Position numbers and translations under genes: made by a program. A stretch of 55,300 nt of DNA, filler included, from Sphacelaria rigidula (lineage: Eukaryota), in the NCBI GenBank assembly GCA_964200075.2. It is 5 parts of 5 records of this genome, joined end to end, with 100 filler letters (N's around TTAATTAATTAA, not from the genome) between each part and the next. Parts side by side here need not be neighbours in the genome. Positions count along the whole stretch, not along the records: positions 33,243 to 44,221 come from CAXNAA020005588.1; 4 more parts are not named here. One strand, 5' to 3'. Shown piece after piece: positions 10,983-54,380 of this stretch. How positions within the stretch are numbered: position 1 is the first letter of the stretch; each line of letters begins with the position of its first letter. The notes below the pieces were generated by a model. That model made no database searches. It worked only from the letters and a program-made list of their open reading frames with translations, and was not told the DNA's origin.

Positions 10983-11082
10983 NNNNNNNNNNNNNNNNNN
11001 NNNNNNNNNNNNNNNNNNNNNNNNNNTTAATTAATTAANNNNNNNNNNNNNNNNNNNNNNNNNNNNNNNNNNNNNNNNNNNN
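10983..11082. other. Artificial contig linker N-TTAATTAATTAA-N
   Basis: 100-nt spacer containing stops in all frames; identical spacers at 22064-22163, 33143-33242 and 44222-44321. Confidence 0.98.
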
Positions 11083-20999: not shown

Positions 21000-23050
21000 C
21001 GACTGCAACCTGGCATTACAGTGGTTGTTGTATTCTACTGACATCCGCCGCAGTTGGCGGTACACGACGTATGTTTCACCTGAGTAGCGCTGTGTGTGCA
21101 TTTAACTATGTTTCTTTTCTTGTATATATAATATAGCAATGACGAAATTAAGATGAATTATCGATGACCTGAAAGGTACGTTTCACGGTTTGAACTGCAT
21201 CAACCCCCGACACGCTTGCGTAGAGGCATCTGGGTAGTTCACAGGGTACTTCCGCCGTGTCTGTTTCTGAGATTTACTTGATCAGTGCTGCGGTGCGGGT
21301 CTCAAGATGAGTTGGGCAGTTTACAGTCAATACTTACCGTACTGTACTGGAACCCCCGACTACTGCATCCCTTTGCTCGTTGTGTCTCTACGCCGATACC
21401 TTATGTGATCGTGTCGATCTTGCACACACTTTGGTTCAGGGTGTCTCATCTTGGCGCGGTGCCGTAAAATGCGACTCCTCGCCATATGCCGTCAACATTG
21501 CGTGCAAAACGTTCGACTCGGTATAGTTTTCAAGTACAACAGCGGTGTAATGGGAGATCCCCGCCACAGTGCCGTCATGCGGGCTTGGCAATCCAGCGCA
21601 CTATGACGGAATTTCCGCCCTATTTCAGTGTTCAGGGTTCCGGGCACCGACCGTCAGGAGGACGACATGGATCTTTGGGAGACTCTGGTCGTTCACATAT
21701 ACTGCACAGATTGGGCTCAATGTCTACCGTACCGTCTACTGCAATCGCGTTCACTTGTGCGTCTCCGTTCAAACTCGCTTAGCGTTATAACGGCGGTCCT
21801 CTTGACGTCGACAGGTGTATCTGTCGTTGGAAATACCCCCTCGAGATCTGTTGATTTATCATTATTTGTAATAATAATAATTATTTTTATTTTTATTTCC
21901 GCACATTAGTCCGATCCCTCGAACTCGTAGTCACAGACGTGAGCTCGTCTTTTAATTACCGCCCCTGCTATTCCTTACAAGACATACAAGCTGGGCCGCC
22001 TAAGAAGCTCACTTTCCTTCAGCCCGTTCTAACTGACGATGTATCGCGAGTTGTGCCTACCATNNNNNNNNNNNNNNNNNNNNNNNNNNNNNNNNNNNNN
22101 NNNNNNNTTAATTAATTAANNNNNNNNNNNNNNNNNNNNNNNNNNNNNNNNNNNNNNNNNNNNAGAGAAAAATGCCACTTCAACCCCATATTTTTTGTGA
22201 ACCTCATTTTCTAGGATCCACTGTTGTGTGGTATCCATTTGAGTCCAATTATCTGGCAGTTCAGAATGCTGCTGAAGCAGCCAAATCTAGCGGCTGTCAA
22301 TTCCAAACGTTTTCATTCACGAATGGCCGGAAATCCCAGAAACCCTCAGATATCAGAAGAAGTGTACCACTTGTTCCAGGTCTTCCAACACAGTCGCCCT
22401 CACATACCGGTTCTATACATTCTGGTTTGGAGTCATTCGCAGACGTGGACACTGTAATGCGTGAGAGGACCGCGTGCTTGGGGGACCGCACCGGAATTTG
22501 AACACCCCTATGGGTAGGGTTAAGGTTAGGGTTTGTATTGGCGTTATGGTCACGGGCGTAGTACCTGCAGGGACTGGCCCGATTGGTTTTGAAAACCATC
22601 GATCCTGCGGTGTTTTGAACTACGACGCGGTCCTCTAAGCACGCGGTCCTCTCACGCATTATATCGGGATCATGGTCAGAGGAATCACAATCCGCTGTAC
22701 CTTCTTCACGCAATTCACACTTTCCACATATACTACACCGACGTCTTTTCGGGGTAAGGAAAGCTACCCTATGCGTTGAATTACCTGTGAGATGGTGTGC
22801 GAGATGGCTCCAGTGCGCTGCCAAATGTTCTGCAGGTCAACCATGCAGATGCCTTCACCTGTGCCCGGTACGATGCAAACGGCGAGTCTTGAGCACGAAT
22901 GCACTGCTTCCGATACTTTGTAGACTGACTCTGACGGCTAGAAGGAGTACCTGGTTTGGAGTGCTTGACAGTTGCAGTCATCACTCTTGAAGACTCATCC
23001 CGCTCCGCTTTTTCCGTAAGTTCTCTGTTGTCGCGCTCTTGCTTAGCCTG
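21000..23050 (-). pseudogene. Fanzor1-like relic (spans an assembly gap)
   Basis: TATVKHS..KASAWL (N-terminus), QQHSEL..TQQWILEN, AIAVDGTVDI (21719-21748, RuvC-I), VPVQYG..RPAPQH..RRKYPVNYPDASTQAC (~21210-21355, RuvC-II), LNAH..NIRR. Confidence 0.65.
22453..22663. mobile_element. MITE with TGT..ACA-type termini (Ginger-like)
   Basis: TIR TAATGCGTGAGAGGACCGCGTGCTT; no TSD seen at this copy; family copies at 26355, 27153 and 32567 (partial). Confidence 0.85.
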
Positions 23051-33142: not shown

Positions 33143-33389
33143 NNNNNNNNNNNNNNNNNNNNNNNNNNNNNNNNNNNNNNNNNNNNTTAATTAATTAANN
33201 NNNNNNNNNNNNNNNNNNNNNNNNNNNNNNNNNNNNNNNNNNGAAGAAATGGGACCATATTTCGAAGATTTAGTGTGGATACGAAGATTTTAATCCTCCG
33301 GGTTCTCATCCTCAATGAAAAGCACCATCCTCAACATAGATGATCAGCTGTTTTATCCTCAATGGAAAGCTCCATCCTCAATTTTGATG

Positions 33390-35420
33390 ATCGGCTGTTT
33401 TCGTAGTATGTTATTAACAAATCCTCCGAGGCATCAGATTCACGACTCGCTGCATTCGAGTCATTGATCGGACCTGCAGAGAATATCCATGAATGCATCT
33501 ACATACCACTCGCAATCTGCTGCAGTTGAACACGCAAGGAGTTTCCCCTGTATCGCTACCGGCGCCGGGGGTTTATTTCGTACACATTTTCCCACAATGC
33601 TTGCCTGCTTCATCAATGATGCCGGTCGCACTTCTTTGACGGGCTCTTCTTCCCCATGATGAGTACTTGCCGTTTTTTTCTAGTGACGGTGGGCCTACAA
33701 TAGTTCGACTCATGCTCTATAACCGTGTATATTATCTCCAATCTGCGTCAGTGAGTGGAGCAAGTTTCACCCGTACTCTCTTCTCGAGATGACCAAAAAA
33801 CGTGTGTTTGATGCATCAGTACATTTCGATATATCGATACATTATTGTTTCATTTTTTGTGACGGCGATTTTTTTCAGGAGCCGGTGAACGGGGCAAACT
33901 ATGCATTGATAACCAGCAGATGATTTACCAACTTTGACGATGTCCCGGGCTAGTGTGGGCCGACAAACTAGCGCGTGCGAATTGTTAAGTGATGGTATAA
34001 CGTTGGGTAGTTCCCTTTTTTTGGCGGACCTCGAACACCGCTGTACACATTTCACTTGGGTTCAGAATGGGTGGTACATGTGTGAACTTGGTCACTGAAA
34101 TGTCAGTAGTGGAAAAAGACCCCAACATCTACCACGCCTTCTTCCCGTACAACAATCCAGTCAAACCATGACCCGATGGCATATTTCGATGTGTGATATG
34201 CTGTATGTCGGTAATTAATACTATTTTGTCGATATATCGGGTGTGGTATTGTTGTATATCGAGCGATATTCCAGGAATGTCTCCATACATCATATAATAA
34301 TTTTTTCGATACATCGGGTGTGATCTTTCATTAGAGAGTTTCGGAAAACAAAATTTTAAGCCAAAAACTCAGGGATAATTTGCGTCTTCTCACTAAAATC
34401 CAATCAAACGATGATTATCCCTGAGTTTTTCCGGCCTGTTGTTGTTTCCCGAAACTCTCTATTGTTGTATACCGAGCGATATTCCAGGAATGTCTCCATA
34501 CATCATATCAGAGCGATTTTGGCAAATTATACCGCTGATAAAGGAGAGTAGAAGGCGACCAATTGCTGTTAAACAAAGATGGCCATCTCGAACAGACATT
34601 TTCAAAATTCTCCTGGCCGACGGACCTGAGCCCAGCTGCACCCCTTCAGTTTCCAGTTGAAATGATTCCCACGACGAGACGGTGCCTGTGACTCATAGAC
34701 AGGCCGACAGACAGGTGCGCAGGCACGCAGCAGGTGTTGCTCGTGTGTGCGCGATATGACCAACGGCAGCACGGCAGTTTGTGACGCAAACCATTTCGCG
34801 GAGCTAGACGCCTACCATTCACACGTTGATCGTTTCAACTCTAAAATAGGTGGCGGATGTATCTCATCCGATGAAACCGTGGGACTTGCACGAGAGGTGG
34901 ACAGGTCTCATCACGGGTGAGAAAAACACGAGACTGGTCAGTGTTGAAGTGTTTCATGTTTGGCAGGCAGGAAAGGAGAGAAAAGTATCATGTGTCTGTT
35001 CCTCTGGAATCTGGTTTTGGAAAGGCCATTGGCAACATCAACATGCTTGCTTGTCATCGCGTACCCGCGCCTGCTTGCCCGCGTGCACGACGGGATGGTG
35101 GTTGAATACGGATAAGCGTGTAGGTTAAGGTTGACTGATGCAATTCCTTCCCCAAGTGTGTGTGGGTGTGGGTGTGTCTGTTGGAGAGGGGGGGGGGGGG
35201 GATTGCTGAACGTGTCGAGCTCCCAACGGTGTGTGTACACTACGGAACGCAAGTCACCTGCTGCCCACACCACGCCTACACCCCAGAGCATTCGGCTGTA
35301 GTGTGTGATATTCTACTCAACGAAAGAACTCGTCGGTGCATTGGAGGAGTAGATGTCGTATTCACGGCGTTTCCGTGCTCCAACATCAGACATTTAGTCT
35401 CTTCACGTTCGTACACATAT
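33390..35420 (-). pseudogene. Fanzor1-like relic
   Basis: EETKCL..HRRVLSLSRISH (N-terminus), W*MLGSFSTTDISV (TDG-like), ILNPSEMCTAV..RYTIT (~34000-34070, RuvC-I), NGKYSSWGR..IIDEAGKHCGKMC (~33580-33680, RuvC-II), IHG, INDSNAA (~33447-33468). Confidence 0.65.
34332..34461. mobile_element. 130-bp TIR element
   Basis: TAGAGAGTTTCGGAAAACAA / TTGTTTCCCGAAACTCTCTA, plus an inner inverted repeat AAAACTCAGGGATAAT. Confidence 0.7.
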
Positions 35421-35899
35421 GATTTTTTGCGCGCGTAGAGGAGTTCCACCGACAAGGAGACCAGGAGGCGGAGCAGGGCATCCCGGTATCGCCTCTCTGC
35501 AGGCGAGACGGACACAACATGGCAAAGAGCCAATGTGACTTCATCGATTTCGTGGTGCGACCATGTGCGGTAAGCAATGCGTTTCTCGCCTGTACGGTTC
35601 AGTAGCAGCCACGCGCACATTGAAGGAGTGGGTGGGTGGGCGGGGAAGGCAGGACAATAGCCATCTGTGCAGGCTTCCAACACGACAAATTTGTGAAAAG
35701 GAGGGGGTCTTTGGCGGGTCTCTCAGGTCGCACGAACGTATAGAGTTCACCTAGGTGAGAAGAAGCATCGCGCAAGCAATGTTGTTCAGTAGAGCAAGGT
35801 GAAGCATTCCTCAAATTCTGCGGTGGTTGATGTGCCGGGCATGTGCATTGTACCCATCTTCTCGTCTCCCACTCTCCCCCATGCAACGCGTGGGCTGTG

Positions 35900-38600
35900 A
35901 AACGGTACATGGTAACTTTGCACCGGTAACAGCCGAAATAGCGCAATGAGTCTCGACCGCAAAAATGAGTCTCGATCCCAAACTAGTGCCGCCCGTAACC
36001 TAAAGCTAGTTATGTTCAATGGCCTTTCCGTCGGCCTAATATCTCTCGACCGCGTGGAAACTGTTTCAGCGCCCTTCATCGATTTAGTGAGCCCACACGG
36101 TGCTGAGCGAAAGCATCATTCTCCCGTTTTGGTTATCACACTGAAATCAGGGCACAATGATGCTTTCGCTCCCGCGCGTCGGCTAGTTTACAGGGTCCAT
36201 GGGAGGCGCTGGAATAATTCCGGGCGACCTATGGACATTGGGCCCTTCACAAAGGTCATTGAAAACAGTGACTTCTAGGTTTCCGGCAAGCACGGTCTCA
36301 TGGTTGACTCTGATTTCAAGATTGAACGTCATTCTTCTGCAATTTCGGCTGCTCGGTGCTCCTCCCTGTCCTCCAACCCACCTTTTCGTGCAACCTGTCA
36401 TGTGGTTTGTTCACGCCGCTGTCCTCTTCCTCGAATGTTTGCGTTTCTCATCAGACCGTTTTCTCATCGTTCGCAAAGGAGAGGCTGTGGCTGACTACCT
36501 TGGAAAACAATCACCGAAGGTTTGCAGCGTACGAGTAGCACAAAGGATACTGCTTTACGATGATCAAGGGTAATTTTTGGAACTTCATTGCACGCAAGCA
36601 GCAAATTCATTCATGTCCGCACTTTTACTATGCTGAGCCATGACAACCCGCATGAAAGGATGGAGAAACGCGATCGTATCTATGTAGTAGTCACCATTTG
36701 AAGGCCTTTTCCAATACGGAGAGATTTTCGAACACGTTTCTTGTCAACAAGACTCATCACGAATAGGCCACTTCTTATGCGTCTGAAAAAAGCTTTTATT
36801 TCAAAAAGCCCATTTTCGGCGACCCAGCGCCGATTGTTGCCGACATACGGGACTCAGCGGTTTGTGCCGCCTGGAAAGTACTTGCTGTACTCTCCCAGAG
36901 CATTCGAGCATACTTGTCCGATCTGTCACGTGCCCAGTCTGACGTTTGACCGGACACGTGATTTCTCACACAACAATACAAAACACGTTTCTCGGAGGGT
37001 TAAGGGTGGTGGCACCTGCATGGGCTGGTGCCAGAAGCGTGCTAGAGGTCCGGCCCACCGGCACGTGCCACTGGGACGCGTCCCAGTGGCACCCATTAGA
37101 GTTCTCCGCTATGCAATAGGGATAACTCCCGTCGTGGTACCTGAGGTACCATTGGCACGTGTCCGTGGGACGTGCCAGTGCACACCCAAATCAGCCCCGA
37201 ACCTGTCACGAAGGAAACGTCCATACAACGCATGATAGCTGGTTTCAGACTGCATGACGCGCCTCACATGGGCGGCATTGCGAGAAGGATCCCAAGCGTG
37301 GGAGTTACCAGCTGGTCGGTGTGCTCGGCTCCTGTCTGCTTGCTTCACACGCAGATTTTTCTCTCTAAAACCGCCCACGCTTCTGGACTGGGGGCTATCG
37401 CGGCACCACTCACTAGCACCATGCACGATTGCGGAGGGCATCTAAAAAAAAACGAATGAATGAATTAAGCATTCGAACGTGGACTCCTGTAGTCACCTTA
37501 GGTGAACAGTTGTGAAGCTCACCCGAAGCCAGATTTTTCCTAAGCTAGCAACAGCCGCGCATTCGTAGTAGCACATGATTGTCAACGTAGGTTATCGACT
37601 GCACTTGCTGAATAATGCAGAGAGTACTCCTGACCTGAGCCCCTCTCATCTGCCGTATCCCTTGTGCGCACCCATCATTGCGTATTTTTTGCAACTGTTG
37701 CAACCATGATGCCAATGGCAAAAACAAAAAAACAGGTGGCAATTACAAATAACGTGATGCACTTCGCACTTTTTATCCAGCGGCAACGTTCATCGCGGAC
37801 TGGGGCCTTCGGTTCCGGCAGGCCAACCACAACATTTAGTACAGGACGGGGAGTAGGGTTTTGCGTAGGGAGATGCGGGTGGCGGGGCAGGGTCGTTGGT
37901 TGTTGCAGACAAAACCTAGTAGGTATTGTCGCGACCAGATCCTTCCAGCAACTTCGATGTGAGCGTTCCAAGTGATGGCAGCGATCGGGGAGGGGGGCGG
38001 GGTTATGTATCCAGTTGATATGTGGAAATATAGTCCCTCAATTATTGGGACGGGATCTACCATGGTCAGTTGCTGTACCTTGATGTTCGTGTAAGGTTTC
38101 TATTTTTGCTGCTCCTGACCACGGGCTGGATTGTTGGAATTAGCTAATGTGAGATAATGTGAGATAATCGATCAAGGTAATTGGATACTGCTACTGCTAA
38201 TTTTGGGGATTTCGAGTCGAAACGTCTTTGCTCCCGATCTTCTTCCTTACGTGCTCGATCGATGGTCAAAATTGAGTGAAGGGCGGCGAAGCAGTCCATT
38301 GGAAAAAAATCGATGCAAATACTGTTTCAGTTCCTTGAGAGATTTTGAGGCGACATCTACGTCATTCTCAGGGCTGAATAATACCTACAAGACAAGCGTG
38401 TTGCTGTCACGACACATCCCTCAGCTTCACACGAATTCTCACACCGAACGAATTACCCGACCTGGTACAGTCACAGAGAGAGACCGGGAAAAAAACTCTC
38501 AGCTGAGGCTGTGTCCTTGGTAGCAATCTCTGAGCCCCGAGGACTCCAGTTAGTCCGATGCCGACTGAGCTCTCGATCTTGAGAAGTTTCGACCATCGCA
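35900..38600 (-). pseudogene. Fanzor1-like relic
   Basis: VRWSKLLKIESS (N-terminus), SITYVDNHVL, AWDPSRN (37277-37297, RuvC-I), SPGIIPAP (~36205-36228), VITKTGE, LVWDRD (~35969-35986, RuvC-III). Confidence 0.65.
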
Positions 38601-39199
38601 CACGAGGCGGGAGTTCGGAAGTCTAGCTATACAAGCTGAACGGGGTAGTTTGGTCGATTCATGACCTACCAGTGGCGACAAGCTCACCATAATCCGCACA
38701 GTCATACTAGTGAACGCCACATGGTGCTTGGGCGGTACATATTTTTATGATGGAAATGTTTGGCGGGTGACTTGCCCCTGAAAATCCATCGGTTCTCTGT
38801 GTGGAAGCGTCATAGGTGGAAGCCATTCGCTTCAGTCCTACGATTAATTCACCCGCTCGTTTGTGCATCGTACCTCTACTGAGTACGACTCGTGACAGAC
38901 AGGGAGCGCTAGAAGAGAGACAGAGAGAGATCGAAAAATAGTAAACGGCTACCTCAAGTGACGCGAGCACGGCACAGGTACAGGTACTGACTCTCGTCAG
39001 GAAAATATACACCGCACGCGACAGACGATGGATGACGAGTCGACACAACATATGACTGATGGCGGCGGAGAGCGCACAGTCGACGATCGATAAGGCCTGA
39101 AGAGCCCTCTTCCCCCGCCAGTGCCCTTGTGCACGTTTATCCATGCGGTGCACCAGAGATAGGGCTCGCCTAGTGAAGTAAGACAGGCGACAACGTGAC

Positions 39200-41330
39200 C
39201 GACGGCGATTCCATACCGTGAGCTGCACCTCACAACACAGCAAATCCAAGTGCGCGGTGCTACATCAAAACTCGACGACCCCCACGAAACTAGACATGCC
39301 ACTTCTTCGTGGTGATTTACAATTTATACAACACTACCGAGACAAGACCCAATGAAATCGACGTGAAGATCGCTGGTACGTCCCCCGTTAACTTGTGTCA
39401 TGCTCTACAATTATATTGTTCGTGTTCGTGCTTTGTGCCGACCGCGCAGTCAACGCTTGACGACGACTGGTCGCTATATGTTGCACGTACTGGTTCTCCG
39501 CCCTCACACGATCCTCACCCCCGTCCCCTGGCCGGATACACTCTCGTCAAGGCAAAATCCGTTCCGTTGCTACGCATGGAGTGGAGAGTTGCTCGAAGCA
39601 CGACCAAAAACGGATCTTGTACCTCCACGCTACCGATTTCTGCTCCTACCGATGCGACGAAGCCTCTCGAATCTACGCAAGCAATCGCCCCTGACAAGAA
39701 ATGCACACTAGTTCATCGGATACCCGTCGGCCGCCTACATGCTGCATGCGTGCAACCTCAGCAGCCTCAGCATCGGTGACGCTCCTGCTTTCAGTAAAAC
39801 TGATCTTGACAGGCATGGGGTCCACCTCACATATTGTATCACTCCCCGAAAGAGCATCGATCTCCGCATCACGGCGGATGTTTAGCAAGAGCGACCCTGA
39901 CTTACCGGACGTTCGAGATTGCACGCAGTCGTCGCACACGAGAACCAGCATGCGGCACCTGGGTTGTACAGAGATTACACGACGGTAACGACAACGGAAA
40001 ACGAAAACCCGAAACGAAGCACGAATGAAATGATCATCGTTTTGGAACCGCGAGCTGCTGCGGCTCCTTGCAGTCCCGTGAAGGATGAGAATATTGCAAG
40101 GGTAGGTCGAGTAGAGTATACTCAATTGCGGGGTATTTTGAAAGCTTTACTTGAAGTACACAACTTGGTGGCAGGGTTTCAGGAATCGCTTCCCAGCTAT
40201 TTTTTGGGTACGACTCCGAACACTCTACCCTAGCTGGAGTACCCCAAGCACGTCTTTCAAAATACCCGGCATTTGAGTATTACTCTACTCGACCTGCCCT
40301 TGGAATATTGTAGACGAGGGGAACAAGCAGGACGGTCGGGCCTTTAAAACGATTGCGCGTATTTCGTTTTGACCAACAGGATCGCAGCAGCCAAGTTGGA
40401 GGTATTGCTGCGGTCCATCATGTGCATGTGCAACATGTATCGCGAACAGGATGGCTGCGCCATGTACGCCTTCGTACCCCACTGGCATTGTCACGCTTTC
40501 AACGACGGAGATGGATACGCGATTCCGGAGCAGCCGTCTGCTTGTTGTACCCAAACATTACAAGCAGAAGGCGCAATATGTGCGTGGCAATGCTCTTGCG
40601 GGCCCGGACCCCCGTTGGTTACATGAAGGCTTTGTCTCTCACGCCAGAACGACGACTCCAAAGTTGCGGCGGAGGGAAATAAGGAAACAGCCGCCTACTG
40701 GGGCATGGGCGCTCATGGGTTGAGAGTCGGAAAGATGGCGTTGATACGTGCGATGAAGTACGGAATATCGCTCCTGGTTGATGTCAATATTCCAAGGGTC
40801 GGACAAATAATGAGACGTCTGGAAATTACTTGGTTTCAGTATCATTGATTCGACTCTTACGAATCAATCCCTGGGCTTTGTTTTCAGCGTTGCAACCCAG
40901 GTACCCGCAGCCCAAACACGTGGAATGGCGCAAACGTTGCATGGATACCCCTTGGACCAGCGGTCAACTTTTGTCTCCCTTTTGGGCGATCAGGCCGAAG
41001 TAATCGTGAGTTTGGTGATCATTAGTCGTGATGATTTGTCCTAACCGTGCAATATCCAATTGTGAACTGGGTAGCCGACACTAGAAAACAAATGGCTAAG
41101 CTTGACGTAACCTGTCTCTCCGATGTATGCCATGCATACAATATGTCAAGTACGACTGAGGCATGGCAAGTGTACAGTCCTGACGCCCTCCGCTTCACCA
41201 TCCAGTCCAATTGACGAATCGATGCACATGTTGCTTTCACCTGCTACAACGTGAACGGCTGCCATAGTCATCCCACGGACACGCGCAGCAAATGCAGCTC
41301 CCCACAACTAGTCCCCCTGCTGGACACTCT
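39200..41330 (+). pseudogene. Fanzor1-like relic
   Basis: FHTVSCT..ATSKL, SLPERASI, KQDGRA, VTLSTTEM, RWR*YVR (~40733-40752), HAYNMS, HVAFTCYNVNGC (~41227-41262), RAANAA (~41283-41300). Confidence 0.6.
40097..40302. mobile_element. MITE with CAAGGG termini and an 8-bp TSD (P-like)
   Basis: TIR CAAGGG(T/C)AGGTCGAGTAGAGTA; perfect TSD GAATATTG. Confidence 0.92.
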
Positions 41331-41389
41331 GGCACCGAAACCCTGTCGAGGCAAAGGAACACCACAAAACGGAATAAAATCGGCGCTCT

Positions 41390-41550
41390 TTCAGGGGTAT
41401 TGGCTCCAGTAACCTGACACCGGGTTACTGTAATTGGGCCAGGACTCGAGCGGGGTACGATTGTCTCCCGCAGTGATGGTTGGCGGCGTTACACCCTTCA
41501 TGCCGCGGACACTGCTACGAGTAGAGTCTCAAGATACCGCTATATTACCT
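41390..41550 (+). pseudogene. IS607 tnpA (MerR-type HTH plus serine recombinase) N-terminal relic
   Basis: CNWA / ERGTIVSRSDGWRRY, then CY-(1-nt shift)-RVS, resembling TLRxW..GKI..RTxGGHRRY..YxRVS; lies directly upstream of a Fanzor2 relic. Confidence 0.4.
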
Positions 41551-41629
41551 GAATAAAAATTGCACTACACAGTGTTGATGGAAAGCAGTACAACCGTGTA
41601 CAGCTTGTGTATTCGGAGGTACACACGAC

Positions 41630-43000
41630 ATGTCGAGAAGGGCCTCACACGCCATCACCATGACATTAAATAAACAAGAGTCACGGTAAATTCAAGCGAT
41701 GTGATGGGCAACGTAGCAGACAACAAGTTTAACGTTTGGGGTCTACAATGGCGGTATTTCCCGCACGACAGGTCAGTGTGATTGTTCGGACTAGAACCGC
41801 CTATGAAGTTGATATATGTTATTAAGCCGCACTTCAAGGAACATAACGACATCTTCGGCAGAACGCCATGAGATGCACACGGTGACAGCAAAAGCCCGGC
41901 TGATAGCACTGAAAAGTGAGGATTGCGGCTGCCCGGCGATGTTGGGGTTCTCAAGACGATTTGGTGCCGCGCTCGTGGTGAATCAAATGTGAAGAACACC
42001 ACAAAGCAATACCCGTGTTTAATGGTGCTTTTTTCGACCCGTGTTTTCATAATTAATTACTAGGAGAGCCACATCTGTTGGACAGGCTACACCATCGTAC
42101 AAAACCTCACGGGTTCAAGTATTGAACTCGATTCGTTCACCATACTTAGACACTTCAAGTCGACAGCTGTGGGATGTCACTGCTGCATAAGTATGCCGAG
42201 TAGTCACCAGATATGCTACAACGGTCACTGCTAAGTAGCACCTGTTCAGCAATTGGTCGATATTACGGCCAATTCAGCTAACACGGGCGGAAAATGATCG
42301 ATGGTGACAACTTGATCCATCCATGGAAATACTACGAACAGGTTAAATCAACTATTTTCTTCTCATTACGGGAAAATATGTTTTTGACAGCTACCGACCA
42401 CCAACTATCCATTTCCTCCTCAAACATTGAGACTCGGATGGCGAGAAGTGACCTCACAAACGAAAACAATCAATGAAAGAAAGAGTCGGGAGTTCTATCA
42501 AAGGATCGGCTTTTCCAACAATGTACGGAATCCGCCGTCTTTCTCCCCCAACATCTACGGTGCAGATGGACGACCGGTACAAATTGGACAAGCATAGAAA
42601 GCTCGCGATTAATAATGTTGTCCACCATGTGAACCATGCGTACCGGATTCTAGGACAAGTTTATTCAATTATTGGCGGAAAAAATGCCGCAACATCCACA
42701 GCTTCAAAAGTACTTCAGCAAGTTATGATGCGAAATAAACGGGTAGACAAGCAGCAAGCCCGTTATCATCTTGAAGCTACCGTTCGAAATCGAGCAGTTA
42801 GTATACCCCTTGTGTCGGAATATCTGACGAGTAGATGTTGCTACAGCAGCCCCAACTTTCGCCACGTACGGCTGCGAATTGAAAAAAAATATTGAAACTC
42901 ACATTTGCGTCTTATTCCAAGCTTCCGAGGCAGACTGATCCTGCACGATGGTCCTGCGAAACTTGGTTCTCACCAAGAATCGCAGAAACGGACACCCCCC
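41630..43000 (+). pseudogene. Near full-length Fanzor2/IS607-TnpB-like relic
   Basis: MSRRASHAITMTLNKQESR*..FGVYN (HTH), IFGRTP*DA, GRYY, SLRENMFLTATD (RuvC-I position), KLAINNVVHHVNH..YSII, LEATVRNRAVSIPLVSEYLTSRCC (LVSEYLTSRCC at ~42809-42841; TnpB-like spacing), HDGPA/RNLVL. Confidence 0.7.
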
Positions 43001-43329
43001 GTTGAGGCGCTTTTTTCTTGCCTTAATTTGAACGAGCGCGGCATTTTGTAGTGAAACTAAAAACGCGTGTGTCCGGATAGCGACCATGCATAGCGTTTTA
43101 CCAGTAGCAATCACACCTTCAAGGCCAAAGTGAGCATCTTATACATACCACTAAATACAGCTCTTTTTTTTTTTTCATCAATGCGGCCCAATAAAGGAGA
43201 AAACAATCGAAAAAAAGAGCCGAGTGGCTGGGAGAACAAAAACAACACGACTGCTCCTCAATGGCTATATTAGAAATTGAACACAAGCCTGAGGCAGGTT
43301 CTTGTTTAGTATATATGCTTTTGTAGAAG

Positions 43330-45100
43330 CGACGGCGTCGTGACCATGCGTAACGGCGTGTTCAGAGAACATCGGGAGATCAATGAGGTTGCAGCATTTC
43401 TCCGTACACTACATACGGACGTGTTTCGGTAACGCTTCAAGCCTGTCACAGGCGATAGGGCTAGCCAACCCAGCATTGCTGAATGCCAGAGCATTTCTGT
43501 TGTCCCAGACTTAGGGTACGGATGGGGTTCACTTTCCCCGTTGACGTGTGCTGCACTTCTGGTTGCATTGGTCGCAACACTGGGCAGAAAAAAACACTCA
43601 AAACATGCTTCGCAACCGGCACCGAAAAGGGAAAATGGTCAACCAATAACATGTAATCCGACGCAAGAGCAATATTCCTCATCGTAGATTTCTTCCACGC
43701 ATCCGGCTCACCCCAACCGTTGACACACACTCGATAAGTGAAGGTCTCCGTATACCTCGAAAAAAGAACGGAAAAACGATAATTTTCGGTAGGAAATCCA
43801 CCTTTGCGCTGAAGTTAGAGCCGTGCATTGTGTCCTGTTTTCACCAACTGTTTCACTTCTCCATGCGGTCATGTTCCGCTGAAATCTTGTTTGGTCTCCA
43901 TATTTGTGCAGAACATGGACAGGTTAGAAAATACAGCCGCTGAAATACGTAACCGTTCGATGTATATCTTGAATCCCAAACTCTTTGCCGGATATCCACG
44001 TTCGAAGCGATCCCATGTGAGTCATCCTGTGCCCACGCATTTTACAGGTGTCTTTCTTCATTACACCAGCAGTGGAGAGTGACTGCGTCGTGGGTAAACA
44101 AAAGTCGACTGAACGGTCGACGAGGGAAAGGGATTGCTGAACCCCTCTCGCGATAAAAATTAAAAGCAAGCACCGCAGAAGGAAGGTGGGGTACTAAATA
44201 AAAAGAAAAAGAAAAAGCTCCNNNNNNNNNNNNNNNNNNNNNNNNNNNNNNNNNNNNNNNNNNNNTTAATTAATTAANNNNNNNNNNNNNNNNNNNNNNN
44301 NNNNNNNNNNNNNNNNNNNNNGGCATCGAGTTTGCTTCTGTCGTGTGTTCGGTGGGGTCTGGCAGGGGGGGGGGGGGGGGGGGGGATGTTTGATTCCACG
44401 AGAAAATGGGCTCATAGGTGCGGAAGACGATACAACACACTCGCGGTGCGCTTGATTTGGGTAAAACTGGTGTTGGGCAGTATGGATGCGCGTTATCTAT
44501 GGGGAGCAATCGCTTTCGAACAACCGTAAATGCTGCTGCTCTTAGCAACGATTGAAATAGAATTTCGTACAAGAAACGCCTCCCCCTTTCGTAGCATGAC
44601 TCAGATATCGAGACAAACAAGATGAACACCTCCTCCCCTGACTCGCGGACCGCAGGTAACCGCTTCATGCATGGACCAGAGACCTTCGACAGACAGGGAG
44701 CTAGTACTCAATCATTTTGCATGATAGTTCAGGGTACAAGGTATTAGTATATACTTACTCCGAGTTTTAACGCAGGGAGAAGGGAGCCCGAAGGTTACAT
44801 TTCAGATGAATCCACCTAAACAAGCACCTGATCATGATCCAACCAGTCTCCATCAACCGACATGGCATGATAACACTGTACCTCTCTCTTTGCGAACTCC
44901 AACGAGGTGGCGAGCGTCTCGCGGCACACGGTATCACCCTCCGGAAAATGAAGAAAAAGATACGGCACTTCGGAGGGGCCCGCCGAGATAGAATCCTTCG
45001 CAAACGAAGCCAGACACTGCCTCACGCGGTCGCGATCCGTCTGGGACGTACGTGAGACGTGAGTTGGGGGCGCACCGAACGCTTAGTTTCTTCGACAGGT
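43330..45100 (-). pseudogene. Fanzor1-like relic (spans a SINE and an assembly gap)
   Basis: LASFAK, DGDWL, SGSLLPALKL; FKIYIERL..LSMF, VNGWG..STMRNIA, VPVAKHVLS..CP, IRTL, LKRYRNTS (~43417-43440, like WxRDxNAS). Confidence 0.55.
44068..44221 (+). mobile_element. SINE family A fragment ending at a gap
   Basis: Matches the body sequence at ~20210-20360. Confidence 0.75.
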
Positions 45101-47679: not shown

Positions 47680-49700
47680 ACCTACGACGCTCCGGTTGGA
47701 TCATTTTCAACACTCGCACTGCCTGCAATCGAACAGTAAGCTGGCTAGATGTTCAGGCCGCCGTTCTGCACGCCTGCTATAATACTACGTCTGCCTACCA
47801 CTCTCTCAGCGTGTTCAATGACAATCGCTTCGATGTTCGCTATCAGCGATACAGACATTCCAAGCCCTGAGCCCTTCCGGTTCTGTTCGGTGTTCATTAT
47901 CTCACATCTATCATTATTGATGTGTGATTCAATTTAATCAATCCTTTTGGAATCCTCCCCTCCTGTCCCCTGACCAAACGCCTTATTATGAGAAGCCCTG
48001 ACGAAGAGGAAAACATGGAAACAGAAAAGGCCGACGGCAACATTTTTACAATGGAAGACCGAAGAAGAATATCCTCCCTGGAGAAATTGGGTAAGGTTTG
48101 TCCAATCATACCACGCAACGGATGAAGTGTGTCCAATTGTATCCAACGACAATAATCAGCAAAACCACTGTAAAACATTCCATTAAAAAAATAGCAATGG
48201 GATCCAGGGCCCAACCAGGCACGTCGGTATATTACCATTTGTAGATAAGGGAAGCACCGCTTTGATGGGCTGCAGCATCGGGTGGCGAGTTCGCCAAGCC
48301 ACACCGTACATACAACATAGTACGGCTGAACCCCGCAAAATCTCGTCACCAAATGTGGAAGGCGCAGTGGATTGTGCGGGCGGTACATGGCGGGCGTGAT
48401 CGCAGGCGTCCGCACAGACGATATACATGCACACGGGAGGGAGCCAACGGGCACCGCCTACCGAAATCAGGCCAGATGAAAATACACAATCCACTGCGCC
48501 TTCCACATTTGGTGACGGGATTTCGCGGGGTTCAGCCATACTATGTTGTATGTACGGTGTGGCTTGGCGAACTCGCCACCCGATGCTGCAGTCCGTCAAA
48601 GCGGTGCTTCCCTTATCTGCAAATGGTAATATACCGACGTGCCTGGTTGGGCCCTGGATCCCATTTCTATTTTTTTAATGGAATGTTCTACGGTCAGTAA
48701 TCACAGTACGTTACACCATTGACTTGCGGCTACACTCCGTGCAATATAAACATAAGCATGTGAAAAGTCGGCCACGAGAGTAGACGGCACGAGACGATAG
48801 CGGTAGCCGGCCTCATGAATTTCATGCAGCATGAAGTATATCTGTGCAACGGTCGGGAACGATCAACCCGCGGTATAGATGTGGTGGGGCAACTGTGCCT
48901 TCCGCTACGCCGTTGTGTAATTGTCAACCCGCAGTATAATGTTGTCTGCACGTGCTTGGCAGAGCGCAGTTCTGTGCATGCCTCGCGTTTGACAGAGATT
49001 TCTTCAAAATACGATATATTTTAAAAAGATAATACAGAAATGACACGAAGCAGCAAGGCATCATCCCTGGGGCGACGGCACTTGGCATACTCTACACCAC
49101 AGTGACGGTGCATAACTGCAGGGCACATGGCGTCTGCGTCGCCTATACACATTTTTTCAAACGGAGGGATGGTGCTGTCGGAACGTGCATGAGCGCGATG
49201 TTGTGCATGACATGAGTGTGCAGTCGAGATTACCCCAAACTGCTGTAAACACACCCAGTACTGTACAGGGCAGTATCGCAGCACCCCTGGCGGCACGGAA
49301 AGGTGACTGCCTGGGATTGTATTACACGCCAGTTCATGAAGATGGCGAATGTGCCATCGGCGTTGCCCTTGTTGCTATGAAGCTGCAAAGAGTATAAACT
49401 GCAGCGGGCAGGGCGTGCAGGTCAGGTGGGAAGCACGCTTCACAGAGGCCTGCCGCGCACTGTGGCCGGGGAAGGAGCTCATGAGTGTGGAAAAAAAAGC
49501 CGACGGGTCGCAGCAAGAAAATAGGAAACCTTCTCTTGTTCCACTTGTCACTCGTACGGGTCTGAAAAACACGCGTTTGGCCAAAATTGTTGCGTCTAAG
49601 CTGTGAACCATCAACCATATCTTGCTCAAAAACCGTCAATTGCAAATGATCAATTTTCCATTGTGAGTTCCAAAAGGATTAAATTAGAAATTCTTTCGCT
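47680..49700 (+). pseudogene. Fanzor1-like relic
   Basis: DVQAAVLHACYNTTSAYHSL (N-terminus), NFMQHEV..LCLPLRR (~48893-48913), SDGA, AVEITPN, LYYT, RFTEAC, RTGLK..TINH. Confidence 0.5.
48167..48694. mobile_element. Foldback element with 210-bp inverted arms
   Basis: 48167-48376 is the near-perfect reverse complement of 48485-48694; 108-bp spacer. Confidence 0.92.
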
Positions 49701-53749: not shown

Positions 53750-54380
53750 GCGCGCCCCGGTGGTGTAATGCAAGGGCAGGTCGAGTAGAGTATACTCAAT
53801 TGCGGGGTATTTTGAAAATCGTGCTTAAAATTAAAGTACACAATTTGGGGGTAGGGTTTTAGGGATCGCTTTCCAGTTATGTTTCGGGTACGACCTCTAA
53901 CATTCTACCCTGATCTGAGTACCTCAAGCACGTCTTTCAAAATACCCCGCAGTGAGTATACTCTACTCGACCTGCCCTTGGTGTAACGGACCGACTATCG
54001 CCGTCAGGGTGGGGAGAACGAGAGTTCGATTCCCGATGCATTGAGTTTTTTCTTCGTAATATCTGATTTCCACCGTGGAAAGCGTGAAAAAGTGAGTAAA
54101 CAAAGTAGTCGACTAAGTTTGTTCGACGTGAGTTGCCGCGGTGCGGGAGTGCTGATAGTCATGACCCAATCTGCGAGATCCAAATGCAAAGCGTGTACCG
54201 AAGGAGAGACGGGATGATCCCTTGAGACCACGGACTCGTCCCCAGGAAGGGAAGGGTTTCAAAGTGCGACAAAAAAATAGAATAAAGACGCGGAAACCCA
54301 GGATTGGTCATCAGATAGAAAACAGAAGTACCAAAGGTCAACAATCAGAAGAACTCGCCGGAGAGAACTGGAGAAAAGGG
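53750..54380 (+). mobile_element. tRNA-derived SINE, family B (with a MITE nested in its head)
   Basis: GCGCCCCGGTGGTGTAA..GAGTTCGATTCCC head; related copies at ~885-1320, 3180-3570(-), 4168-4510, 4960-5560, 6788-7340 and 47080-47200. Confidence 0.75.
53771..53980. mobile_element. Second copy of the P-like MITE
   Basis: TIR CAAGGGCAGGTCGAGTAGAGTATACTCA; TSD GTGTAATG/GTGTAACG. Confidence 0.92.

Follow-up and report, generated by a model that had tools for sequence, protein, structure and literature searches.

Introduction

Fanzor/TnpB-like genes of brown algal endogenous viruses have already been described (PMC3627910, PMC13236599, PMC11890097): IS200/IS605-like genes are present in brown algal EVEs (PMC11890097), an IS4-Fanzor element is restricted to EVEs in Ectocarpus, and phaeovirus insertions sit in introns (PMC13236599). 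The TnpB/Fanzor motif is given as D-X(125,275)-[TS]-[TS]-X-X-[C4 zinc finger]-X(5,50)-RD (PMC3627910), and the catalytic triad of ApmFz2, an IS607-type Fanzor2, as Asp324, Glu467 and Asp501 (PMC11832414). In Fanzor2, an alternative RuvC-II glutamate is placed six residues before the zinc finger (PMC10711439).

In this work we analyzed a window of 55,300 nucleotides, filler included, from the Sphacelaria rigidula assembly GCA_964200075.2 (244 Mb, 27,214 contigs). Five unrelated contigs of about 11 kb each are joined in it by artificial linkers, each 100 nt long and made of N's around a spacer with stops in all six frames (10983-11082, 22064-22163, 33143-33242 and 44222-44321). The locus of interest lies on CAXNAA020005588.1 (contig C5588, window positions 33243-44221), where the initial annotation had proposed an IS607-like unit with a tnpA remnant, a Fanzor2 relic and an omegaRNA region. 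With IS607-type Fanzor2 (ApmFz2, PMC11832414; the group of Bao and Jurka 2013, PMC3627910), it shares V-x-E-Y-x-T-S-x-x-C with the glutamate six residues before the cysteine, a helix-like region at matching spacing, an LDP string upstream and stem-loops 3' of the frame. It differs in that it is without a C4 zinc finger, a third Asp, a detectable N-terminal half, a TnpA, defined ends and any library match, and in that it is present as a single copy. Compared with ApmFz2, DPS takes the place of DPG and 168 instead of 143 codons lead to the glutamate. With the Fanzor1 of ESvi-1B/ESv-type phaeoviral elements (PMC3627910), the locus shares E-x-x-T-S-x-C-C, whereas support beyond this motif, terminal inverted repeats (TIRs) and a target-site duplication were not found. 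The accessible literature on brown algal Fanzor/TnpB genes yielded no report of the locus itself, and supplementary sequence files (e.g. of PMC3627910 and PMC10711439) may hold closer relatives.

Results

The whole stretch is intronic in a host gene on the minus strand (Table 1), a fact that the initial annotation had missed. Contig depth in runs X6 and X7 is 57-69 on the exon (41238-41348) versus 0-5 in the intron, and the 1378 nt by which an X6 transcript contig extends further upstream match nothing on 41349-44220. Read on the minus strand, 41343-41400 consists of a polypyrimidine tract and the CAG acceptor of the host exon, and a GT donor is found at the other side of this exon. The splice joints, the acceptor and donor, the open frame and the unplaced upstream 1378 nt together identify everything from 41343 to the contig end as intron, and the left boundary that had been drawn for the IS607 unit (41390) therefore falls on splice signals. 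X6 and X7, both from a single study, are presumed to be RNA (no run is recorded as such), so that low-depth contigs within the intron carry no weight on expression; nor can such contigs reveal a small RNA. The region 39673-41342 (-) comprises the two last exons of an expressed, Cys-rich host gene. The peptide encoded by the exon at 41241-41342 appears to resemble the C-terminus of rhodanese-domain TSTD2/STR6-type proteins; it gave no match in a Pfam search, and an Atlas search of the next exon gave no useful match.

Table 1. Position, strand and properties of features at the locus and in the surrounding host gene (window coordinates).
Feature	Position	Strand	Remarks
Last coding exon of host gene	39673..39958	-	Splice joint in X6 and X7 contigs; stop codon ends at 39673; frame open across splice
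1282-nt GT..AG intron of host gene, with two repeats	39959..41240	-	Joint 39955->41238; CT..AC ends at cut +3
102-nt coding exon of host gene, Cys-rich	41241..41342	-	X6/X7 contigs; open frame into next exon
Upstream intron, 3' part, reaching contig end	41343..44221	-	Transcript contigs and acceptor context; contains the whole locus
Proposed tnpA remnant, unsupported	41390..41630	+	TnpA profile at background
LDP-containing string, RuvC-I-like, ends in stop	42311..42346	+	Same frame as the 147-codon frame
147-codon stop-free frame	42452..about 42892	+	Weak, collinear alignment of 42482-42841 to the helix-to-RuvC-II part of Fanzor2
RuvC-II-like motif	42770..42841	+	Profile-column match; codon 42818 as candidate for the alternative Glu
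Stable hairpin with two less stable ones behind it (to ~43040); candidate omegaRNA remnant	42954..42985	+	-16.9 kcal/mol

Repeats lie on both sides of the region (40090-40309, 40789-41055 and 44059-44221). The repeat at 40090-40309, within the host intron, is palindromic and MITE-like (74% self-complementary) and has a second copy at 53766-53981; those at 40789-41055 and 44059-44221 border the unique part of the intron, are of very high copy number and occur in many X6/X7 contigs. Elsewhere in the window, 48167-48376 and 48485-48694 are the arms, 210 nt each and 96% complementary, of an inverted repeat with a spacer of 108 nt, a young fold-back or MITE-like element. For the stretch enclosed by the 40789-41055 and 44059-44221 repeats, nothing similar was found in the window or in 600 kb of other contigs, and DNA and protein searches for further copies in the genome returned the locus itself only. 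The locus is thus single-copy; weak paralogues may have escaped these searches, which pass over frequent words and score a small number of candidates.

The block is present in both X2 and X5. Relative to the window, strain X5 has a 63-nt deletion (41545-41607) and a 9-nt insertion at 42430, and it differs in 48 letters over 41608-44095 versus 3 over 39500-40118. Among the differences listed, five within the 147-codon frame are nonsynonymous and two synonymous (5/7 versus 0.77 expected at random); the five agree with the protein of the X5 allele (P0001), in which the frame is likewise open. These small numbers fit neutral drift between strains.

The motif LEATVRNRAVSIPLVSEYLTSRCC lies inside the 147-codon frame, and its spacing is that of the Fanzor2 RuvC-II profile with every column agreeing, so that the TnpB spacing originally ascribed to it was borne out. 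None of 1,203,540 codon positions in 600 kb from other contigs of the genome scores as high as its 13-residue core. The candidate alternative glutamate codon stands six residues ahead of the cysteine as in Fanzor2, within what is a single short motif. The frame around it is one of 23 stop-free segments of at least 147 codons in the window. An ATG at 41630, the start assigned to a Fanzor2 relic of ~1.35 kb, is present and in frame with the motif, but 15 stops interrupt the first 274 codons from there, and 182 of 316 controls are equally open as, or more open than, the cheapest three-frame path through 41557-42895. Taken together, the stops, the path and the many long segments leave no family-independent trace of a 1.35-kb gene. 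An AlphaFold model from the single sequence (pLDDT 45.7, all-helical, no fold match) was uninformative.

Upstream of the motif, a block corresponding to the Fanzor2 helix region occurs at the expected distance (p 0.005). The LDP string, on the other hand, lies about 35-40 codons too far upstream of the remaining alignment, to which it can be joined only by long insertions; the distance from its Asp to the glutamate is 168 codons versus 123-152 in 38 of 42 measured sequences. Its p value is 0.009-0.015 as an 11-residue block chosen after inspection and 0.37 as the 15-residue block tried first. Other Fanzor parts were sought in vain. Of the TnpB/Fanzor family motif (PMC3627910), TS-x-x is present and the second CxxC and RD are absent in frame, the best out-of-frame blocks having p values of 0.40-0.56 for the zinc finger and 0.18-0.22 for the third catalytic Asp. 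The sequence downstream of the motif adds no score with Fanzor2 profiles, and N-terminal HTH blocks are at background (p 0.62 and 0.26). Neutral decay was simulated for five held-out real genes in 840 runs. Scores of 35 or less were reached mainly at 0.3-0.4 or more substitutions per site, at which the open frame around the motif was typically 25-41 codons long, and a low score coincided with at least 147 open codons in 1 of the 840 runs. For this reason the long frame lends no support to a Fanzor2 origin unless the donor lineage was divergent.

Custom profiles, about eight in all, were built from Fanzor2/TnpB, Fanzor1 and IS607 TnpA proteins of this genome and of publicly available virus and metagenome contigs, and were applied with several parameter sets. 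With HMMER, the locus is absent among the 14 chunks matched at E<=20 by a 46-sequence Fanzor2/TnpB HMM, and its E values are 7.2 (phaeoviral Fanzor2 profile), 2 (a profile of 51 sequences) and 0.78 and 0.14 (Fanzor1 profiles). An E value of 0.0044 was returned by a 5-sequence profile alone and is discounted because its five sequences had been gathered via the EYxTS motif. In hhalign, the motif alone was aligned, at probabilities of 1.2% and 6.4%, the latter being the maximum. A frameshift-aware aligner gave 32.9 bits with the Fanzor2 profile over 42482-42841, in an alignment that is collinear, almost free of gaps and confined to one frame over about 125 profile columns. This score was reached by none of 51 window segments and none of 100 shuffles; among 600 segments taken from other contigs 3 reached it, or 1 once composition was corrected for. 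The score of the RuvC half was reached by 0, 4 and 1 of 600 control segments under three gap settings. As a window holds about 55 such segments, 0.05-0.3 chance matches are expected per window. The phaeoviral type would be the likeliest Fanzor2 donor locally, yet 62 of 600 controls match its profile no worse than the locus does.

When the motif was held fixed and the 115 codons upstream were scored, about 0.2-10% of controls were as good with Fanzor2 profiles, depending on the profile. The figures are 10/400 shuffles and 0/400 genomic pieces, and 2/500 codon shuffles and 1/600 open genomic frames, for Fanzor2 profiles; 8/600 shuffles and 4/600 open frames for the 51-sequence profile; 19/600 and 10/600 for an independent 5-sequence set; and 60/600 and 26/600 for the phaeoviral profile. 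A 6-sequence subfamily profile (45/500, 23/600) is given no weight, its sequence filter having been flawed. With Fanzor1 profiles the same codons did no better than controls (241/400; 364/600 and 111/600). On these comparisons, 42452-42845 may descend from the RuvC region of a Fanzor2/TnpB protein or may resemble it by chance.

The initial annotation had staked its full Fanzor2/IS607 claim on TnpB or resolvase profile matches. TnpB, resolvase and MerR families were found neither in 15 stop-free fragments (Pfam, NCBIfam, PHROGs) nor in six frames with stops read as X (Pfam, NCBIfam), and PF07282, PF01385, PF12323 and NF040570 have no match at the locus, whereas an intact Fanzor2 of the genome, the positive control, matches NF040570 at 1e-25. 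Genome-wide searches with PF07282, NF040570, PF01385 and PF00239 retrieved elements on other contigs and none on C5588. On its own terms, the full claim is refuted by the standard libraries. When the 147-codon frame was compared with 1.84 billion proteins, the three matches at E<=0.001 were the 96% identical allele of the other strain, on a contig that at 3016 nt equals the X5 contig in length, and two repetitive proteins; further homologue searches with the 147-residue frame returned no relative. One lone homologue match was dismissed as chance, since it runs on the strand opposite to the bacterial gene, and an IS110-transposase-like first Atlas match (0.93, 139 shared features, recognition below threshold) was taken as noise. 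A final virus scan listed four loci, with the motif in the translated frame at none of them, and blastn and tblastx of the locus against all collected Fanzor/TnpA loci, including those of the genome itself, gave nothing significant.

The strings described as MerR-HTH/YxRVS remnants, GWRRY (~41478) and YNRVQ (~41589, within the segment deleted in X5), do exist and stand in one frame, 37 codons apart, but the region is at background for TnpA. It scores 14.3 bits with a 43-sequence IS607 TnpA profile, a level attained by all but two of the 51 window segments and all but five of 100 shuffles, and the score of 41343-41700 is reached by 374 of 480 controls; five TnpA blocks have p values of 0.17, 0.07, 0.54, 0.99 and 0.54, the 0.07 belonging to the GqRRY block. 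A TnpA serine recombinase with an N-terminal MerR-type HTH upstream of tnpB, the hallmark of IS607, was not detected at the locus; likewise no terminal repeats stood out, and neither TIRs nor a target-site duplication were found. Neither the IS607 unit nor its tnpA part nor a gene start at 41630 is supported.

A guide RNA had been expected at ~42950-43150. Folding of 42900-43200, the check suggested at the outset, gave an unremarkable z of -0.49. In narrower windows z falls to between -2.6 and -3.0 owing to the hairpin at 42954-42985, and 42910-43029 is the most stable of 44 intron windows; the level of z -3 is attained by 16 of 364 windows across the 55 kb. The hairpin is real but common, as control DNA contains 46 equally stable ones per 100 kb (~0.09 per 200 nt, or about nine in 100 stretches of that length), and Rfam has no match in the candidate region. 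The proposed guide RNA is not supported by these results, the hairpin being a candidate remnant.

Long open Fanzor genes are encoded on other contigs of the same genome. IS607-type units are found at C117:2451-4272 (-) (L012, L240), where a MerR-HTH/resolvase TnpA overlaps a long open Fanzor2 frame, and at C4055:680-2450 (+) (L013, L241), where the TnpA match contains one TGA and again overlaps a long open Fanzor2; the adjoining genes seem to lack introns and to resemble those of viruses. One more resolvase, the third, is situated at C185:24138-24524. Long open frames are also seen in Fanzor1 genes, which belong to two subfamilies and occur on C279, C117 (~10650), C2267 and C4055 (~5500) (L007, L008, L009, L011), so that on both C117 and C4055 a Fanzor1 accompanies a Fanzor2. 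One Fanzor1 shares 73-76% identity with three loci on a virus contig of 335,593 nt, and Fanzor proteins on other contigs share 63-67% with Ectocarpus siliculosus and Sphacelaria rigidula records. In contrast to the locus, the C117 and C4055 elements have long open Fanzor2 frames in a phaeovirus-like context and match PF07282, PF01385, PF00239 and MerR; the locus has no significant similarity to them.

Discussion

We are highly confident that the stretch is inert intron DNA. It is single-copy, lies in an intron of a host gene on the minus strand, in a nuclear genome of brown-alga type, and holds no mobile-element gene that is intact or recognizable to the libraries. It would drift neutrally and is probably transcribed only within the host pre-mRNA and then spliced out; splicing is shown at the flanking exon, and we infer it for the remainder. 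As such it would encode no transposase, nuclease or guide RNA. Where the motif comes from is a more delicate matter. Chance resemblance without any Fanzor ancestry has, in our judgement, an even prospect of being correct, nearly level with descent from a dead Fanzor2 fragment, a judgement drawn from the control comparisons after about eight profiles had been tried. Most likely, the motif would then be the best match that chance provides in a window of 55 kb, with the hairpin, the 'tnpA' strings and the ATG at 41630 interpreted around it. What counts for chance is the intronic and single-copy state of the locus, the absence of library matches and relatives, the locus missing from the 46-sequence HMM list, the low hhalign probabilities, an openness no greater than that of controls, the lack of any score downstream, the weak phaeoviral fit, the decay simulation and the proportion of nonsynonymous differences. 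Counted against it are the motif itself, unequalled among the control codon positions, the upstream fit to Fanzor2 profiles, the LDP string, the position of the hairpin and the presence of IS607/Fanzor2 elements in the genome.

The closest rival is a dead fragment (~42300-43050) of a TnpB gene of the Fanzor2/IS607 type, derived from a lineage of which databases hold few members, which we consider a serious though tentative candidate. Such a gene would have entered the intron in antisense orientation, probably with a giant virus, and would then have decayed, the hairpins being remains of the omegaRNA and the right end. The C117 and C4055 elements, together with the intron insertions reported for phaeoviruses (PMC13236599), provide a plausible route of such genes into the nucleus, and the unequalled motif core, the collinear, nearly gap-free alignment, the helix block, the rarely equalled RuvC-half score and the z value near -3 of the hairpin point the same way. 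Against this stand the chance matches expected per window, the number of profiles and parameter sets tried, the missing second CxxC and RD, the background HTH blocks, the overlong distance from Asp to Glu, the rarity of a low score combined with a long open frame under simulated decay, and the failure of both DNA and translated comparisons to link the locus to the Fanzor genes of the same genome. In a more specific form, the block would stem from a divergent lineage of Fanzor2/pro-Fanzor type that differs from the phaeoviral Fanzor2s and is missing in the protein collections searched; the element would have inserted by itself into a brown algal intron outside an EVE and left part of its omegaRNA. 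This we regard as rather unlikely. A Fanzor1 gene that has decayed and extends over three frames between ~41560 and 42900 is largely refuted and very improbable: EYLTS is common to sequences of both Fanzor types, Fanzor1 genes are present in the genome and one Fanzor1 protein, L215, gives an alignment of 135 residues (E 0.013 for the window), but this query had been preselected by the motif, the upstream fit is no better than that of shuffles and the read-through N-terminal frame has an hhalign probability of 0.1%. Slighter still is the prospect of a complete IS607 unit with a tnpA remnant from 41390, Fanzor2 from ATG 41630 and an omegaRNA to 43150, which is refuted at the sensitivity reached; the paired GWRRY and YNRVQ strings and the GqRRY block speak for it, while the background TnpA profile, the four other blocks, the splice-acceptor sequence at 41343-41400 and the stops behind the ATG speak against it. 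Least probable of all is a retained and expressed antisense unit within the intron, be it a domesticated nuclease-dead fragment in the 147-codon frame or a small RNA from the hairpin region. The open frame in X5 and short low-depth X6 contigs over 42643-42844 and 42902-43144 would suit it, but no purifying selection is seen, comparable contigs of low depth occur elsewhere in the intron and stop-free segments of this length are numerous in the window.

Chance resemblance within inert intron DNA, our preferred reading, and a dead Fanzor2 fragment both leave the locus ordinary, and under either it supplies no usable nuclease or guide RNA. If the relic were real, it would add a single dead fragment to a family that has been described before, in a lineage whose phaeoviruses are known to bring Fanzors with them (PMC3627910, PMC13236599). 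Its mild interest would then lie in an IS607-type gene that is not part of an endogenous virus, given that the IS4-Fanzor element is reported to be restricted to EVEs in Ectocarpus (PMC13236599), and were the relic of the divergent kind outlined above, it would show that IS607-type elements have moved into the host DNA of brown algae. The more useful by-product of this work is the set of long open Fanzor2 plus TnpA and Fanzor1 genes on other contigs of the genome.
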